Part shown: piece after piece, positions 2,683 through 32,345 of the stretch
Numbering within the stretch: position 1 is the stretch's first letter
Layout of the letters: each line of letters opens with the position of its first letter
Assembly (NCBI GenBank): GCA_963836075.1
Contig: CAWIIB010000001.1
Coordinates: forward strand, 320,001-384,000
Length of the DNA stretch: 64,000 nucleotides
Direction of reading: 5' to 3'
DNA from: an uncultured Acidobacteriota bacterium
GTDB lineage: Bacteria; Acidobacteriota; JAQAZP01
Program-made: the position numbers and the translations under genes
Notes under the pieces: model-generated
What the model saw: only the letters and a program-made list of their open reading frames with translations
What the model was told of the DNA's origin: nothing
Databases searched by the model: none

Positions 2683-2970
2683 GAAGACCGGCCTCCTGCC
2701 GGCCAGGACCGGATCATTCAGGCAGGTCCGGCAGAAGGTTGCTCATGACCACCGCTGAGGGAACAGGAGGGAAGGACATGCTGAACCGGTAGCCCAGGAA
2801 TTCCTCGGGGTTATATCCTTCTTGACTGTATAGTGAGTAGATAGAGCTGGTTGACCAGGAATCGGCTGATCCTGCCTTCTCGACTGATCGACGGCATCAG
2901 CCACCATACTTCGGACGGCGCTCCTTGCACTTTTGCTGCGGAGCACCACCGATTGAAAAAGGAGTTCAAG

Positions 2971-4834
2971 ATGTCTCTACGCTCGGTGTTCAGCATGCTG
3001 GCCCTGATCGCCGTTCTCGTGCCGGCGGAGCTTCCCGCCGCACAACATCTGCCCAATGCAATGGGCAAGGTCAATATTCTCGAGAACGGACGTCAACGCG
3101 TCCTGCCGCTCTCCGGTCACCAGGAGGCGGGCAGCGTTCGGGCCGCCTGGGACGTGCTCCCGGGCTGGCCGGTGACCGTTCCCGCCTCAGGAGAGGAAGG
3201 CGGGATTCTCGTCGAATTGGATGGCGACAGCGACCTGGAGCTGGTCTCCACCGCGGGGACCACAATCAGCGCCCACAACCCCGACGGGACCACAGTTACC
3301 GGATGGCCCCGGACCACGGTAAACACCATCGGAGGTGCAGCTGCTGCAGGAGACATAGACGGTGACGGCGATCTGGAAATCGTGGTCAACACCTGGTCCT
3401 ATTCGAGCGCCGGCCAGATCGTGGCCTGGGAGCTGGACGGCACCCTGGTGGCCGGATTCCCGGTGGACAACGGCTATGCCATGCGTTCGGTGACCCTGGC
3501 CGACCTCGACGGCAACGGCACCATGGAAATCATCAGCAACACCAGGCTCTACCCGGTGGGCGAAGTGACGGTCTACCGCGGCGACGGTTCAATCTATCCC
3601 GGATGGCCGCAGCCGATCACCCACGTCCCGGCGGGCAGCGCCGCGGCGGGTGATATCGACGGCGATGGTGACCCGGAAGTGATCGGCATGTCCTACGACG
3701 CACTCTTCGCCTGGCACCATGACGGCACCGCGGTGAGCGGGTTCCCCTTCACCCTCCCGGTCAGCATCACCGTCTCCTACTCCTCGCCGGTACTCGCCGA
3801 TATCGACGGTGACGGCTTGCGGGAAATCGTTTTCGGCGCCTGTCACGAGAGTGGCGGCACCAGCCCGGTCTACGTGCTCAACGGCGACGGCACCGTTCTC
3901 CCCGGCTGGCCGCAGGTACACGCTGTACTGGAACTTTGCCCCGCCGGCGGTCTGCGACCTGGATGGAGACGGCGGCCTCGACGTGGTGTTCGGGGACCAG
4001 GTGCTCAGCGGCAGCGGGCCGGTGGACCGGCTCTATGCCTGGGACGCCTCGGGCACACCGCTGGCCGGATTCCCGGTGACCAACATTGATGCGGTCTTCG
4101 CCCACCCGCTGGCCGCCGATCTGGACGGCGATGCCGACCTGGAGATCCTGCTCACCGACAACGTCACCTATTCGTTTCCAATGGGCAGCGGCCGGCTCCA
4201 CGCCTGGCATCACGACGGCACGGCATCGGCCGATTTTCCGCTGGTGGTGATGGGCGGCACGACGTTTCTCAATGCCCCCTGTCTCGGTGACATGAATGAC
4301 GACGGTCTGCTCGACCTCGCTGCCCGGGCCAGCGATTTCAATAATAACCTGTCAAACATCTCCGTCTTCGGGTCCGACGTGGCCTGGGATCCGGCGAACG
4401 TCATCATCCCCTGCTTCCAGTACAACGTCCGGCACGACGGCCTCTATCCCGCAGCCGAATCGGTCGGGACAGTGGCGGCCACCTTCACCTGCGACCCGCC
4501 AAGCGGGACTCTGCCCTTCAGTTCGACCTTTTCGGTCAGCCTGGAGAACCTTTACGGTGGGGCCACGCGGCGCATTGCCGCCCGAGTCAATGTGACCACG
4601 GGCAGTGGTGGCTTCTACGGCAACTGGCGCAGCGGCTACACCAACGTGGCGGCCGGCAGCGCGTACACCAAAGCCTGGAACCAGGTGATTCCGGCTCTAG
4701 GTTCGCTGGTCGGCGACAATATCTTCACCCTGGCCGCCGAGGACGTGACCCCGGCACCCTACAACCAGCCGCCTTATCCAGCAGCCGGCGACACGGCAAC
4801 CGCGGGATGCACGGTGACCGGGTTGTCCCCGTGA
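2971..4834 (+). CDS. Secreted FG-GAP/VCBS repeat protein with an uncharacterised 121-aa C-terminal domain; +1 indel at about 3915
   Basis: RBS AAGGAG at 2959 and ATG at 2971. Signal peptide MSLRSVFSMLALIAVLVPA. Repeated D(L/I)DGDG..EIV....(A)W..DGT...G(W/F)P units run across ORFs 2851..4089 and 3809..4834, which join by removing one G at GGTAC 3915. Confidence 0.8.
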
Positions 4835-4844
4835 CTTGCGGTAA

Positions 4845-4879
4845 ATAAAAAACGGGCAGGTCCGACCGGGCCTGCCCGT
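4845..4879 (-). terminator. Intrinsic terminator for ppdK (may also act on the convergent gene)
   Basis: Stem ACGGGCAGG 4852-4860 / CCTGCCCGT 4871-4879, followed on the minus strand by a T tract. Confidence 0.75.
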
Positions 4880-4908
4880 GAGATTGCTTCGCTGCGCTCG
4901 CAATGACA
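4880..4908. repeat. Fragment of a palindromic REP/RPE-like element (GAGATTGCTTCGCTGCGCTCGCAATGACA)
   Basis: Imperfect hairpin whose antisense frames translate to VIASAAKQS and CHCERSEAIS, resembling the widespread GTCATTGCGAG...GAAGCAATC palindromic elements. Confidence 0.5.
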
Positions 4909-4912
4909 GCGA

Positions 4913-7642
4913 TCAGTCGTTGAGCGTGGCGATGGCCGCGGCCAGCCGGGCCACCGGGACACGGTAGGGCGAGCAGCTGACGTAGTCCAGGCCGGTCTTG
5001 TGGCAGAAGTCGACCGAACGGGGGTCGCCGCCGTGCTCGCCGCAGATGCCCACCTTGAGGTCCGGGCGGGTGGCGCGGCCCTTCTTCACCCCCATCTCCA
5101 CCAGCTGGCCCACGCCGCTCGATGTCGAGGGTCTGGAACGGATCGTCGGGCAGCACCTTCTTCTCCACGTATTCGGGCAGGAAGACCCCGGCGTCGTCAC
5201 GGCTGTAGCCGAAGGTCATCTGGGTCAGGTCGTTGGTGCCGAAGCTGAAGAACTCGGCGTTCTCCGCCACCTGGTCGGCGGTGAGGCAGGCCCGGGGGAT
5301 CTCGATCATCGTGCCGACGAGATACGGCGTCTCCACGCCGGCCTCCTTGAACACCTGCTGCACCACCTCTTCGGCCTGGTCCCGCAGGATGTCGAACTCG
5401 GCGGCGGCGCCGGTCAGCGGGATCATGATCTCGGGGAAGACGTCGACCTTCTCCTCCTTGACCAGGTAGCAGGCCGCTTCGATGATCGCCCGCACCTGCA
5501 TCTGGTAGATCTCGGGGTAGGTGATGCCCAGGCGGCAGCCGCGGTGGCCCAGCATGGGGTTCGACTCGCTGAGCTGGCTGACCCGGGCGGCGATCTTCTC
5601 CGGGGTCACACCCATCTCGGCGGCGATCTCCTCCTGGGCCTTCTTCTCGTGGGGCAGGAACTCGTGCAGCGGCGGATCGAGCAGCCGGATGGTCACCGGC
5701 AGGTCGTCCATCGCCCGGAGGATGCCGACGAAGTCCTCGCGCTGGATCGGCAGCAGCTTGTCCAGGGCCCGCTGGCGGTCGTCCAGGGTGTCGGCCAGGA
5801 TCATCTCGCGCATCTCCCGGATGCGGTCCTCGCCGAAGAACATGTGCTCGGTGCGGGTCAGGCCGATGCCCTGGGCGCCGAAGGCCCGGGCCACTTCGGA
5901 GTCGTGGGGCGTGTCGGCGTTGGTCCGCACCTTCATCCGCCGCACGTCGTCGGCCCATGACATCAGCTTGGCGAAGCGCTGGAACACCGGGGAATCGGCG
6001 GCGTCGAGGCTCTTCTCGGCCAGCACCTGGATCACCTCGGAAGGCCTGGTGGGCAGCTCGCCCAGCAGCACCTCGCCGGTGGTGCCGTCGATGGAGATGA
6101 AGTCGCCCTCCTTGACCACGGAGTCACCGACACTGAAGGAGTTCGACTTGTAGTCCACGTTGAGCGCCCCGCAGCCGGCCACGCAGCGCTTGCCCATGCC
6201 CCGGGCCACCACGGCGGCGTGGGAGGTCATCCCGCCCTTGGCGGTGAGGATGCCCTCGGCGGCGCTCATCCCGGCGATGTCCTCCGGCGACGTCTCCAGG
6301 CGGACCAGGATCACTTTTTTACCTTCCTTCTCCACCATTTCCACGGCGCGCTCGGCGGTGAAGGCCACCTGGCCGCAGGCCGCGCCGGGGCCGGCTTGAG
6401 GCCCCGGGCCAGTTTCCGGCCCTGATCCACCGCCTCCTGTTTGGCCACCGCCTCGAACACCGGGGCGAGGAACTGAACCAGCTGTTCGGGGTCCATGCGC
6501 AGCAGCGCTTCCCGCTGGTCGATCAGCCCTTCCTCAACCATGTCCACCGCGATGCGCACGGCGGCGAAGCCGGTGCGTTTTCCGGTGCGGGTCTGCAGCA
6601 GGAAGAGCTTCCTGTTCTGGATGGTGAACTCCAGGTCCTGCATCTCCTTGTAGTGGTTCTCCAACTGCAGGTAGGTCTGCTCCAGCTCCTTGTAGACCTC
6701 GGGCATCTCCTCTTCCAGGGAGGGCAGCGAGTCGTCACGTTTCTGGCTGATGTTGATCGGCTGGGGGGTGCGGATGCCGGCCACCACGTCCTCGCCCTGG
6801 GCGTTGACCAGGAACTCGCCGAAGAAGACCTTCTCGCCGGTGGCCGGGTCGCGGGTGAAGGCCACGCCGGTGGCGCAGTCGTCACCCATGTTGCCGAAGA
6901 CCATGGTCTGCACGTTCACCGCGGTGCCCCAGTCGTCGGGCAGGCGGTTCAGTTTCCTGTAGGTCACCGCCCGGGGCACGTTCCAGGAGGAGAACACCGC
7001 GCGGATCGCACCCCAGAGCTGCTCTTTCGGGTCGTCGGGGAACGGCTGGTTGGCATGCTTGTTGATACAGGCCTTGTAGCGGGAGATCAGCTCGATGAGG
7101 TGCTCCTCGTTCAGCTCGTTGTCCACTTCCACGCCGACCCGTTCCTTCAGCTTGGTCAGGATCTCCTCGAAGTGTTCGCCGTCCACGCCCATCACCACGT
7201 TGCCGTACATGTGGATCAGCCGGCGGTAGCAGTCGAGCACGAAGCGCTCGTTGCCGGTCTTCTCGGCCATGCCCACCAGGGTACGCTCGGTGAGGCCGAT
7301 GTTGAGCACCGTGTCCATCATTCCCGGCATGGAGGCGCGGGCACCGGAGCGGCAGGAGACCAGCAGCGGATCGTTCTCGTCGCCAAAAGTCTTGCCCATG
7401 GAGCGTTCCACCCGGGCCAGGTTGTCCATCACCTGCTGTTCAACGCCCTCGGGGAAATCCTCGTTGTTGGCCAGGAAGTGGATGCAGGTCTCGGTGGTGA
7501 TGGTGAACCCCGGGGGCACCGGGATGCCGAGGTTGGTCATCTCGGCCAGATTGGCGCCCTTGCCGCCCAGAAGGTTCTTCATCTCGGCCTTGCCTTCGGC
7601 CTGGCCGTCACCAAAGTAATAGACATATTTTGAACTGGTCAT
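4913..7642 (-). CDS. ppdK: Pyruvate, phosphate dikinase; two apparent indels (about 6396 and 5117)
   Basis: [37 protein letters not shown] (phospho-His), [16 protein letters not shown] and [10 protein letters not shown] are spread over three frames (6311..7678, 4725..6368, 4913..5200). Confidence 0.95.
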
Positions 7643-29213: not shown

Positions 29214-29360
29214 TAAACACACATAACGATCGGAAGTCACTTTTCGCCAACCTGACTTTCCGGGATTCATTTTCCAATACAGTGCCATCTCCGTTGCGTG
29301 CTGGTGGAATCTCTGGCAGCAACGGAAACCGTTCCACTCTCACAGGAGGCTCAGTCCACG

Positions 29361-32345
29361 ATGAAACGAAGCATTTCCCTGATCGCCGTCGTTCTTTTTA
29401 CGGTGGCGGCCCTCTCCGGCTTCACCAGCGACCTTTCCGCGTTCACCAACCATGGTCACCAACCTGGCGTTTTCGCCAGCCAGCCGCTGGTGGACTCTGT
29501 TCACGCCAAGGGCATCCAGCGCTACGTGCCCGACCCGCTGGTGCAGGCGGCCCTCTCCGAGAGGCCGCTGTGGCAGGACTTTCTCGCCCGCCACGGTGAG
29601 AACTGGCAGGTCCGCTGGTATCCCGGCACCGGCACCCCGCACATCGTCTGGGGTGAAGGGCTTCCCCTGCTGCCCGACGGCGAGCCGACCTTGGCCCAGG
29701 TGGAAAAGATCAGCCGTGATTTCATCCGCGAGAACAGCGAACTGTTCATGGTGGACGAAGCCGAACTGGTGCTCAAGGACAAGTCGGTCAACCTCGGCAA
29801 CGACAACGAACTCTGGTTTGTCCACTTCCAGCGGGTGGTGGACGGTATCCCGGTCTATGCCAGCGACGTTTACCTGCGCTACAAGTTCGGCCGCCTGGTG
29901 CAGTTCGGCTCCGACTGCTTCCCCGATCTCGCCGCCACCCCGCGGCCGGAGATCGACGGCCTGGAAGCCCTGGAAATCGCCCAGGCCGACTGCGGCTTCA
30001 AGCATGGTGTGGACTCCCTGGAATCGGCCGGCGACCTGCTCTACTTCCCGGTGCAGCACACGGTGGGCGGCGCCTTCGAGTACCGCCTGGTGCAGCGGGT
30101 GAACATCCGCCGTATCGACGGCCCGATGAACCTGCACTACTTCATCGACGCCCACGACGGTTCCATCGTCGCCCGCTGGGACTATGTCTTCCGCACCATC
30201 TCCGGCACCGTCACCGCTGAAGTCTATGAACGGCACGTGGCCAACCCGGTGACCGAACGTCCCATGCCCTACCTCACCGTGGACTTCAGCGGCTCGGCCA
30301 GCGTCGAGACCGACATCGACGGCTTCTACACCTCGCCGGCCACCGGCGACCAGACCATCTCCGCCGAGCTCTATGGCCCGTACTGGAACCTGAACAACCA
30401 GGCCGGGGCCGATGGCTCCGTCTCCTTCAGCGGTTCCGGCGCCGGCCAGGACATCATGTGGGAGGACACCAACTCCACCATGGCCGAGCGCACCTCCTAC
30501 CACGCTCTGGACCGCATCCGCACCCTGGCCCTGAACTATATTCACCCCTCGTGGTTCGACCAGCGCCTGCCGGTGAACGTCAACATCAACGACACCTGCA
30601 ACGCTTACTACGACTACAGCTCGGTGAACTTCTTCCTCGCCGGCGGCGGCTGCAACAACACCGGTGAGCTGTTCGACGTGGTGGCCCACGAGTGGGGGCA
30701 CGGGCTGGACGACAATATCAGCGGCATCTATGACGGCGCGTCCTCCGAAGGCTGGAGCGACATCACCGCCATGATGCAGACCGAGGACTGCCTGGTGGGA
30801 CCCTACTTCCACACCGACGGTTCGCCGGTGCGCAACATCTGCGACGACTACACCTACCCCGAGGACACCGGTGAGGTGCACTACGAGGGGCAGATCATCG
30901 GCTCCACCAACTACGACCTGCTGGTCTACCTCCGGGCCTCCCTGGGCGACAAGCCGGCGATCAGCAAGCTCCAGGAGCTCTTCTTCCTGCACATGTACAC
31001 TTCGGACCACTACCTCGACGACTACATGGCCTACCTGGTGATCGATGACGATGACGGCAACCTGGCCAACTACACTCCCAATTTCGTCGACATCAACACC
31101 GCCTTCTCCGAGCACGGGCTCACCGAATACGTGGTCCCCACCGGTGTGCTCTTCACCCACACTCCGCTGCCCGACACCCCGGACACGGTCAGCCCCTACG
31201 AAGTGATCTCGCTGGTCACCTCGATCACCGACACCCTGGACACCGGATCGCTGGAAATCCGCTACCAGGTGGACGGCGGTTCGTTCAACAGCGTGGCCAT
31301 GACCACCACCGGCCAGCCGGACGAGTACCATGGCTTCATACCCGCCCAGGGCGTGGGCGCCGAGGTGAGCTACTATCTCTACGGCGAGGACGACGAGGGC
31401 CCGGGCACCCTGCCCCAGACGGCCCCCGGTTCCACCTTCAGCTTCCTGGTCGGTTTCAGTACCATCTTCTTCGACGACATGGAGAGCGGTGAGGGCGGCT
31501 GGACGCACTACGAAGTGGCGGCCCAGGACGACTGGATGCTCGGCTCGCCGGGCCCCAACGCCTACGACCCCTCCAGCGCCTACTCCGGTTCCAACATCTG
31601 GGGCAACGACCTTGCTCCCGACGGCTGGAACGGCAACTACTACGCCAACGTCCACAACTACATCCAGTCCCAGGTTATTGACTGCAGCGGCTTCAGCGGC
31701 GTGCGGCTGCGCTACATGCGCTGGCTCACCGTGGAGGATGCCATCTACGACCAGGCCACCATCTACGTCAACGGCACCCAGGTCTGGCAGAACGCCGTGG
31801 GCGCCGACCACATGGATACCGCGTGGACTGTGCACGACATTGACATCTCGGCCCTGGCCGACGACAACGCCTCGGTGGTCATCGAGTACCACATGGAGAG
31901 CGACGGCGGCGTGGAATTTGGCGGCTGGAACTTCGACGACTTCAAGCTGCTGGGCACCACCTCGGTGGTCCCCCAGGACACCATCGAAGTTTCCCTCGCT
32001 GCCGACCCGGCTTCCGGTGTCGTACCCTTCACCACCCAGTTCACGGCCATGCTGACCAACCTGCTGGCCGGCGAGCAGCGGCAGGTAGCCGGTCGGGTGG
32101 ACGTGGTCACGGCCGGCGGGACGCCCTACACCAACTGGCGTGCCGGCTGGACCAACCTCAGCGGCGGCGAAGTCTTCAGCACGGTCTGGAACCAGAACAT
32201 CCCGGCCCTCGGTTCTCTGCTGGGCGACAACGTCTTCACCTTCCACGGTTTTGACGTGACCCCCGCCCCGTTCAACCAGCCGCCCTACGCGCCGTCCGGC
32301 GACACGGACAGCGAGAGCGCCACGGTGACCGCCACGGCTCCCTGA
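29361..32345 (+). CDS. Secreted gluzincin metalloprotease (M4/M36-like) with propeptide, Ig-like and beta-sandwich domains and an uncharacterised 121-aa C-terminal domain
   Basis: RBS AGGAGG; signal peptide MKRSISLIAVVLFTVAALSG; FTP/PepSY-like propeptide (VHFQRVVDGIPV, YFIDAHDG); CNAYY, HEWGH, EGWSD and EVHYEG. Confidence 0.85.
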   Translation: MKRSISLIAVVLFTVAALSGFTSDLSAFTNHGHQPGVFASQPLVDSVHAKGIQRYVPDPLVQAALSERPLWQDFLARHGENWQVRWYPGTGTPHIVWGEGLPLLPDGEPTLAQVEKISRDFIRENSELFMVDEAELVLKDKSVNLGNDNELWFVHFQRVVDGIPVYASDVYLRYKFGRLVQFGSDCFPDLAATPRPEIDGLEALEIAQADCGFKHGVDSLESAGDLLYFPVQHTVGGAFEYRLVQRVNIRRIDGPMNLHYFIDAHDGSIVARWDYVFRTISGTVTAEVYERHVANPVTERPMPYLTVDFSGSASVETDIDGFYTSPATGDQTISAELYGPYWNLNNQAGADGSVSFSGSGAGQDIMWEDTNSTMAERTSYHALDRIRTLALNYIHPSWFDQRLPVNVNINDTCNAYYDYSSVNFFLAGGGCNNTGELFDVVAHEWGHGLDDNISGIYDGASSEGWSDITAMMQTEDCLVGPYFHTDGSPVRNICDDYTYPEDTGEVHYEGQIIGSTNYDLLVYLRASLGDKPAISKLQELFFLHMYTSDHYLDDYMAYLVIDDDDGNLANYTPNFVDINTAFSEHGLTEYVVPTGVLFTHTPLPDTPDTVSPYEVISLVTSITDTLDTGSLEIRYQVDGGSFNSVAMTTTGQPDEYHGFIPAQGVGAEVSYYLYGEDDEGPGTLPQTAPGSTFSFLVGFSTIFFDDMESGEGGWTHYEVAAQDDWMLGSPGPNAYDPSSAYSGSNIWGNDLAPDGWNGNYYANVHNYIQSQVIDCSGFSGVRLRYMRWLTVEDAIYDQATIYVNGTQVWQNAVGADHMDTAWTVHDIDISALADDNASVVIEYHMESDGGVEFGGWNFDDFKLLGTTSVVPQDTIEVSLAADPASGVVPFTTQFTAMLTNLLAGEQRQVAGRVDVVTAGGTPYTNWRAGWTNLSGGEVFSTVWNQNIPALGSLLGDNVFTFHGFDVTPAPFNQPPYAPSGDTDSESATVTATAP

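Follow-up and report, generated by a model that had tools for sequence, protein, structure and literature searches.

Why do two otherwise unrelated exported proteins end in the same 121 residues? The question is raised by a 64,000-nucleotide stretch of DNA from an uncultured Acidobacteriota bacterium (assembly GCA_963836075.1, contig CAWIIB010000001.1, positions 320,001 to 384,000 of the forward strand; the whole stretch is called the window below), in which an FG-GAP repeat protein and a metalloprotease carry the same C-terminal domain, here termed the tag. An initial annotation of the window had read this pair as a candidate protein sorting or anchoring system. At the level of sequence, our analysis gives strong support to the domain being a portable C-terminal tag of Sec-exported proteins, specific to one lineage. 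Its carriers amount to about 217 exported proteins, mostly proteases and beta-helix, FG-GAP and propeller proteins, in a deep-branching uncultured lineage. We consider it probable that the tag confers a shared fate on these proteins, be it anchoring or export.

Two copies of one domain in the window

Copy 1 of the tag occupies positions 4469..4831 of the plus strand (stop codon 4832-4834) and copy 2 positions 31980..32342, likewise on the plus strand (stop codon 32343-32345); these are the only copies within the window. BLASTP of the two open reading frame (ORF) products aligns the 121-residue copies with 60/121 identities, 81/121 positives and no gaps (E 5e-38), which reproduces the gap-free match of about 60 identities that had been counted by hand at these positions. 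Every other local alignment between the FG-GAP protein and the metalloprotease has E >= 1.1, and the cargo parts of the two proteins are therefore unrelated, as had been proposed. Copy 1 scores 233.9 bits on a profile of the two copies and 198.1 bits on a 30-copy profile, and copy 2 scores 238.2 bits on the former. In each copy the last residue directly precedes the stop codon and the domain finishes in ...TVT..(S/A)P, without a hydrophobic segment or basic tail, so that the earlier description of a domain at the exact C-terminus lacking a transmembrane helix applies to both. Copy 1 has both of the cysteines conserved in the family (Cys8 and Cys114), and copy 2 has Ala at each of these columns, as do all six of its orthologues.

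A large C-terminal family in one genome

The genome to which the window belongs (G000; 6.23 Mb, 10 contigs, 64% GC) holds many more copies. With the two-copy profile, the 150 candidates scored out of 282 all have E <= 1.1e-37, and a six-frame hmmsearch with an iterated profile gives 225 domain matches in 224 stop-to-stop ORFs. Chance as the cause of the likeness between copies 1 and 2 is excluded because of these 225 matches in the same genome. The domain end coincides exactly with the stop in 172/225 matches and lies within 5 residues of it in 203/225; the remaining matches are mostly fragments of frameshifted genes, plus two truly internal copies. After adjacent fragments are merged there are 217 loci, 195 of which cover at least 105 of the 121 profile positions, and the carriers make up roughly one gene in twenty-five of the genome. 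The initial annotation had anticipated both many copies per genome and C-terminal placement. The loci are also clustered, as 121/217 have another locus within 6 kb, more than random placement gave in 200 trials (mean 75, maximum 101).

The 188 near-full copies share a median of 48% identity in pairwise comparison (5-95%: 32-61%; range 21-99%), and gene conversion as the source of the conservation was set aside on account of these values. Twenty-one columns are at least 90% conserved, including W53, R54, G56, P75 and G82, and the conserved columns of a loop run D92-T94-P97-N99-Q100-P101-P102-G107. The motif blocks quoted from the two window copies are real and correspond to conserved columns of the whole family. 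Conservation begins sharply at residue 1 (T-[VI]), which is preceded by a linker of 4-6 small or Pro residues in which the last residue (-1) is one of D, S and G in 108/178 copies. Cys8 and Cys114 sit on the first and last strands of the modelled fold and covary, with both present in 127/188 copies, neither in 28 and one alone in 33. This pattern therefore suggests a disulphide that would staple the first strand to the last in about two thirds of copies.

A divergent Cys-rich subfamily (CNG...CNCDL...C.(I/V)TT.C) does not have the Pro/Tyr-rich PAPYNQPPYPPAGDT loop, yet is still the last domain of its proteins. Members of it in G000 lie at C9:2392206-2392532, C1:1708557-1708889, C1:1910808-1911143, C9:1050501-1050833, C1:997674-998030 and C9:2390488-2390844.

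Distribution of the tag

The tag is confined to a narrow lineage. Its profile matched 3/41 Acidobacteriota genomes, namely G000 and two others of its genus (G001 and G002), and gave no match in any of the 38 genomes of other Acidobacteriota families. The three tag-bearing genomes alone constitute the GTDB class of G000, and they contain at least 150, 114 and 92 matches at E <= 1e-30, respectively. A pattern scan of 185,579 species genomes returned 131 stretches, 124 of them confirmed; the 80 retained all come from two record sets of metagenome-assembled genomes, one of them titled Acidobacteriota bacterium. Among 1.84 billion representative proteins, 502 match at E <= 1e-3 and 366 at E <= 1e-30. 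In the best 150 of these representatives the tag is terminal in 144, internal only in 4 and followed by a 7-8 residue tail in 2, with two copies present in 8. The restricted taxonomy that had been predicted is thus borne out.

The two carrier genes

The FG-GAP repeat protein gene carrying copy 1 (2971..4834, plus strand) is split in the assembly by one extra G at 3915/3916. ORF 2851-4089 holds a signal-peptide-like start (MSLRSVFSMLALIAVLVPA... from 2971) and the first FG-GAP repeats, and ORF 3809-4834 (plus strand, 341 aa), one frame over, holds further FG-GAP repeats and the tag; the two frames meet at about 3905-3916. In comparisons with public contigs over 3600-4300, a contig of run X1 spans 3600-4191 with 5 substitutions and leaves out one base at 3915, and a contig of run X2 breaks off at 3915 and resumes with the bases after 3916, each of these contigs being a single low-depth record. 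Those of the compared runs that contain this DNA are catalogued as metagenomes of freshwater sediment and of sediment, and no RNA data set was among the runs listed for it. With one G fewer at 3915/3916, 2971-4834 becomes a single ORF with signal peptide, FG-GAP repeats and tag. The Sec signal peptides that had been assigned to both window proteins are therefore present at the level of the FG-GAP gene, but ORF 3809-4834 as assembled has none.

The adjacent gene, for pyruvate phosphate dikinase, is broken by a frameshift too, with PEP-utilizers_C profile positions 6-221 in ORF 4725-6368 and positions 233-289 in ORF 4913-5200. As two adjacent genes are affected, we read the splits as assembly indels rather than pseudogenes. 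The assembly holds single-base indels in coding regions more widely, and several genes for Peptidase_C25 (gingipain-like) proteins are broken in the same way. Fragmented gene calls are consequently to be expected for this genome.

Copy 2 is carried by an M36 (fungalysin)-like metalloprotease gene (29361..32345, plus strand), located in ORF 29298-32345 (1015 aa) with a probable start at 29361; the 994-aa form beginning MKRSISLIAVV... is database record P0151. The protein is laid out as a signal peptide, a propeptide-like region, an HExxH catalytic part, a MAM-like domain and the tag, and gives weak PepSY/FTP propeptide and thermolysin-type matches in Pfam and NCBIfam. Its homologues are named by their sources as M36 family, immune inhibitor A or MYXO-CTERM proteins. 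In six orthologues the cargo is 80-88% identical, and the tag is present in 6/6 at 64-86% identity. The next homologues, at 38% identity or less, are records named Planctomycetota, Myxococcota and Deltaproteobacteria. MYXO-CTERM exceeds its cut-off at the end of 6/30 scanned homologues, one homologue has a dockerin in the position of the tag, and others have PKD, Ig or IPT domains. Moreover, NCBIfam lists M36 families dependent on myxosortase, on rhombosortase and on T9SS as distinct entries, alongside 'choice-of-anchor' domains (T9SS, type IX secretion system). Together, these observations indicate that the tag sits where sorting and anchoring signals are exchanged.

Three homologues (P0157, P0158 and P0160, Planctomycetota or Planctomycetes where named) have a different C-terminal stretch of about 105 residues, assigned to no family, after the MAM-like domain, ending ...VAP or ...TIQ, which may be the terminal tag of another lineage.

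Cargo and export signals

A Pfam scan of the cargo took in 65 of the best 150 database representatives. Beta-helix/NosD domains were found in 11/65 and peptidase domains (S8 x5, M28, M14, C1, C25) in 9/65, followed by FG-GAP repeats, propeller-type domains (PQQ, SBBP, BNR) and other binding domains (F5/8C, LTD, PA14/LamG, PKD, DUF362) in 5/65 each; one carrier had a glycoside hydrolase family 5 (GH5) domain, one had PPC only, and 28/65 had no Pfam family. Overall, the tag occurs on more than 20 unrelated cargo families, and a role in substrate-specific binding is therefore unlikely. The reading of the tag as a carbohydrate-binding module was set aside, as only 1/65 scanned carriers has a glycoside hydrolase domain.

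Signal peptides were judged by a crude sequence rule. By this rule, signal-peptide-like N-termini occur in 111/135 tag-bearing ORFs of at least 500 aa versus 486/1361 long control ORFs, in keeping with the proposal of signal-peptide proteins with diverse cargo, and in 83/99 representatives of at least 400 aa. The counts are 10/19 for tag-bearing ORFs of 350-499 aa and 4/30 for those below 350 aa, many of the latter probably being 3' pieces of split genes, as in the window. The genome also encodes about 22 Peptidase_C25 genes (25 matches in 24 ORFs); the tag is in frame in nine of the ORFs, and in three others it follows closely downstream in a different frame. Four other C25 genes finish in FG-GAP repeats instead of the tag.

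Fold and family relationships

No family library that we searched contains the domain. In Pfam, the two copies at E <= 1 gave no family and a sole 13-bit chance match, and 30 tag members at E <= 10 gave nothing relevant, neither CARDB nor PKD (PF00801 / PF18911). In NCBIfam, both copies gave no family at E <= 1. A search of PDB sequences with the 30-copy profile returned one chance match only (E 0.94), and full-text literature searches, supplements not covered, found no description of the domain. That the tag would have no confident match to a described family is thereby upheld for Pfam, NCBIfam and the PDB.

An AlphaFold2 model built from a 30-copy alignment (pLDDT 96.0, pTM 0.84; the predicted local distance difference and template modelling scores) is all-beta with eight strands, and residues 93-108 form an ordered, non-regular loop. 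Fold searches with the model returned many immunoglobulin (Ig)- or fibronectin type III-like sandwiches with none standing out, the neighbours including RbmA (11.9), the Ig-like domain of AlkC (11.2), CARDB 3idu (10.1) and PKD 4xed (9.4). No C-terminal domain (CTD) structure of T9SS was among the matches listed by Foldseek or VIA, which does not exclude such a similarity. The nearest clusters in a language-model protein atlas are named CARDB, at 0.86-0.89, below the level of reliable matches. With hhalign, the best CARDB probability is 20.9% over 63 columns, a weak match that takes in the CARDB-like 'V.V.N ... L..GES ... G.N.F.L' layout, and the other two alignments give 0.3-0.4%. The CARDB model PF07705 has 0 matches in G000-G002 at E <= 1e-5 and is positive in 7 other Acidobacteriota genomes and 4 controls. 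The resemblance to CARDB and PKD thus appears, as judged from the model, to lie at the generic fold level only. We accordingly regard the tag as a new family with a predicted Ig-like beta-sandwich of generic type, and possibly as a very distant CARDB-like relative.

Canonical CARDB domains, with PF07705 over its cut-off, are themselves terminal in three other Acidobacteriota families, where they lie 4-10 codons before the stop in many different ORFs. These loci are L116, L129, L132, L134, L136, L138 and L140 in G011, which are close paralogues within that genome, L123, L127, L130, L133, L135, L137, L139 and L141 in G014, and L119 in G012. They may represent an analogous terminal-domain expansion from a catalogued family.

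Candidate partner machinery

The initial annotation had also inferred that machinery encoded elsewhere reads the tag. The predictions about the tag itself have stood, but for the machinery no T9SS core gene was found. PorV had no match with NF033710 in G000, nor with PF19572 in G000 or in any of 41 Acidobacteriota genomes, with the B. thetaiotaomicron control over the cut-off for PF19572. SprA (TIGR04189, PF14349) and GldM (PF12081) also gave no match, in searches in which no control exceeded the cut-off either and which did not extend to GldK, GldL and GldN. For the T9SS CTD (TIGR04183), the best match in G000 reaches 19.5 bits against a cut-off of 23 and is located away from the tag. As presented in PMC4793230, one survey detected T9SS in Bacteroidetes only.

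Two leads emerged. One is a PorU-like C25 peptidase of 937 aa (G000:C1:1027244-1030054, locus L162, minus strand), which scores 201.8 bits (E 1.4e-59) on NF033707 'T9SS sortase PorU', whereas the other six of the seven C25 proteins without the tag score 17-61 bits. The match covers protein residues 318-934 and positions 106-733 of the 1095-position profile, whose curated cut-off is 420. PorU-like proteins occur in 19/41 Acidobacteriota genomes, most of them without the tag; an orthologue is present in G001 (65% identical) and none was found in G002. The gene has housekeeping genes as neighbours and is followed immediately by a 164-aa S24-like gene; its surroundings show neither a barrel nor a translocon gene.

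The other lead is one of three secretin matches in G000, a lipobox-bearing protein of 834 aa (G000:C1:2169995-2172496, locus L153:8995-11496, minus strand) in an operon resembling type II secretion system (T2SS) and type IV pilus (T4P) operons, with T2SSE bearing MshEN, T2SSF, PilM, PilN and two pseudopilins. Its C-terminus consists of an acidic Gly-rich linker of about 120 residues and then a Cohesin domain (PF00963; 33.5 bits, cut-off 24.1). A full-text search found no paper linking a secretin, a cohesin domain and type II secretion. Within the genus, this cohesin-like domain is conserved at 92-96% identity; it occurs in 24/41 Acidobacteriota genomes, often in ORFs of 750-970 aa, and is therefore not lineage-specific. 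As a receptor for the tag, the cohesin on the secretin was tried by complex prediction and set aside, both runs giving 0.00, a value that counts neither for nor against it. The PorU-like peptidase and the cohesin-bearing secretin are the only machinery candidates, neither is lineage-specific, and both should be regarded as leads. The partner machinery of the tag is not established.

Discussion

In this study, we asked what a shared C-terminal domain does on the exported proteins of an uncultured lineage. The domain is new, in that it has no match in family libraries or PDB sequences and no description in the literature searched; a folded C-terminal tag on diverse cargo is a known kind of arrangement. 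The main known cases of folded C-terminal tags that confer a shared fate come from cellulosomes and from the type IX secretion of Bacteroidota, and a tag of such logic is found here in a diderm bacterium showing no type IX secretion genes.

We tentatively favour a tag that is retained on the mature protein as a surface-retention or docking module, akin to a dockerin or SLH module, over a cleaved export signal, and give this reading somewhat less than an even chance. Cargo would be exported by Sec via its N-terminal signal peptide, and the tag would then fold in the oxidising periplasm, where the Cys8-Cys114 disulphide predicted from covariation could form in the copies that have both cysteines. 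The outer membrane would be crossed by a general route; a T2SS/T4P-like apparatus is encoded, and the carriers may use it. The tag, kept on the mature protein, would finally dock to one shared surface or matrix ligand, and its docking face may be the invariant surface made up of W53/R54, W70 and the rigid Pro/Tyr-rich loop DVTPAPYNQPPYPPAGDT. Our preference for a retained module over a cleaved signal is moderate, and rests on three observations: the searches found no translocon, some copies are tandem or internal, and the domain appears durable, with its putative disulphide and rigid conserved loop. Copies in tandem or internal positions are easier to reconcile with a module for binding or anchoring than with a strict export signal.

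Several points weigh against a retained docking module. The analysis found neither a ligand nor a receptor, and docking is a prediction, with a putative docking face drawn from sequence conservation. The lineage has no close relatives without the tag, so that co-occurrence tests are impossible. With about 96% of carriers having it at the terminus, the tag is more strictly placed than most binding modules, the prevalence of D, S or G at position -1 would also suit a processing site, and the genome encodes a PorU-like C25 peptidase. In addition, the Cys pair is imperfect, 33/188 copies having one cysteine and 28 none, and in the metalloprotease orthologues the tag evolves slightly faster than its cargo, so constraint on it is not unusually strong.

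Some of these points bear on the idea of a cleaved tag that, like the T9SS CTD, signals export or attachment, is read by an unrecognised outer-membrane pathway and is removed by the PorU-like C25 'sortase', perhaps with covalent linkage of the cargo to a surface glycolipid. We judge this unlikely. The carriers do share the layout of T9SS cargo, namely a signal peptide, diverse hydrolases or adhesins and one Ig-like terminal domain, and the almost always terminal position and mostly small residues at -1 would suit a signal that is cut off; a disposable signal would not, however, be expected to have a conserved disulphide or to occur in tandem and internal copies, and the best TIGR04183 match stays below its cut-off. 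The enzyme itself points in both directions. It stands well apart from the other tag-less C25 proteins on the PorU model, in a genome with about 22 C25 genes, yet its score is below half of the curated cut-off, its relatives are mostly in tag-less genomes, no orthologue was found in tag-bearing G002 and its gene is flanked by housekeeping genes. PorV was found in 0/41 Acidobacteriota genomes, its control being detected, and SprA and GldM gave no match, though their controls were nowhere over the cut-off. A stronger version seems to us distinctly improbable, in which the tag would address its cargo to an undescribed pathway of outer-membrane export and attachment, in a phylum lacking type IX secretion; this pathway would recognise the Pro/Tyr-rich face and use the PorU-like C25 protein, as a transpeptidase without PorV or SprA, to process the cargo and fix it to the cell surface. 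If it were true, the PorU-like proteins of the 19/41 genomes and the terminal CARDB domains would be other versions of the same system.

It is rather doubtful, too, that the tag is an ordinary Ig-like adhesion, spacer or stabilising module of CARDB or PKD type with no sorting role, spread by 3'-end domain shuffling and duplication, which binds environmental particles or polymers or gives stability. The CARDB names of the nearest language-model clusters and the weak profile-profile match lean this way, but no member matches the CARDB or PKD profiles at E <= 10, and the CARDB model has no match in the three genomes. Canonical CARDB as the last domain in other Acidobacteriota genomes also speaks for this account, and the clustering of loci indicates that expansion occurred partly by tandem duplication; modules of this type are nevertheless usually internal, repeated and variably placed, whereas about 96% of carriers have the tag once, as their final domain. 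Its evolutionary rate in orthologues is ordinary, as this account would have it, and against this stand one invariant set of surface motifs kept across more than 20 unrelated cargo families at a median identity of 48%, and a position that in homologues is taken by known sorting signals.

If found, the partner of the tag would reveal how a major, as yet uncultured, sediment lineage of Acidobacteriota displays proteases and polymer-degrading enzymes. The profile already serves as a one-step predictor of the exoproteome of the lineage and justifies a new domain family entry, and the domain, compact and predicted to fold with confidence, would make a 121-residue candidate display tag. For now its importance is limited by the very small clade and by a function that is predicted only.

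Comparison with known systems

A close parallel is the type A CTD of T9SS (TIGR04183 / PF18962 Por_Secre_tail), which is likewise a single Ig-like sandwich at the extreme C-terminus, with hundreds of copies per genome on unrelated signal-peptide-bearing hydrolases and adhesins, gingipain-like C25 proteins among them. The tag differs in having no match to the profile, in its length (121 aa vs a 72-position model), in its conserved Cys pair, Pro/Tyr-rich loop and tandem and internal copies, and in a genome in which PorV, SprA and GldM were not found, the SprA and GldM models being without a positive control. Relative to CARDB (PF07705; PDB 3idu), the E.NE.NN-type C-terminal ending is replaced in the tag by the PAPYNQPPYPPAGDT loop. 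Within the same phylum, Solibacter usitatus has Soli_cterm (TIGR03437), a C-terminal domain that, like the tag, is present in many copies and restricted to its lineage; the 225-position model of this different family, however, matches neither the tag nor anything in G000.

The MYXO-, PEP- and GlyGly-CTERM signals, as generally described and in part as set out in bioRxiv 10.1101/2023.06.07.544157, are 20-35 residues long, consist of a motif, a transmembrane helix and a basic tail, and are cut by intramembrane or membrane sortases. The tag resembles them in its equally diverse cargo and in occupying the same C-terminal position on homologous cargo. Unlike these signals and LPXTG, it is a 121-residue soluble fold whose end, ...C-T-V-T-G-x-A-P, comes straight after a beta strand and contains nothing hydrophobic of any length. 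Dockerins are helical and bind calcium, and the tag departs from them (PF00404) in its all-beta, eight-stranded model and in having no Pfam dockerin or SLH match. In its proposed mode of action, by contrast, it would be much like dockerin-cohesin and SLH modules, docking many exoenzymes to one partner; it is likewise mostly terminal, occasionally tandem or internal and common to many exoenzymes, and, as in dockerin-cohesin systems, cohesin-like domains are encoded in its genome, including one on a secretin.

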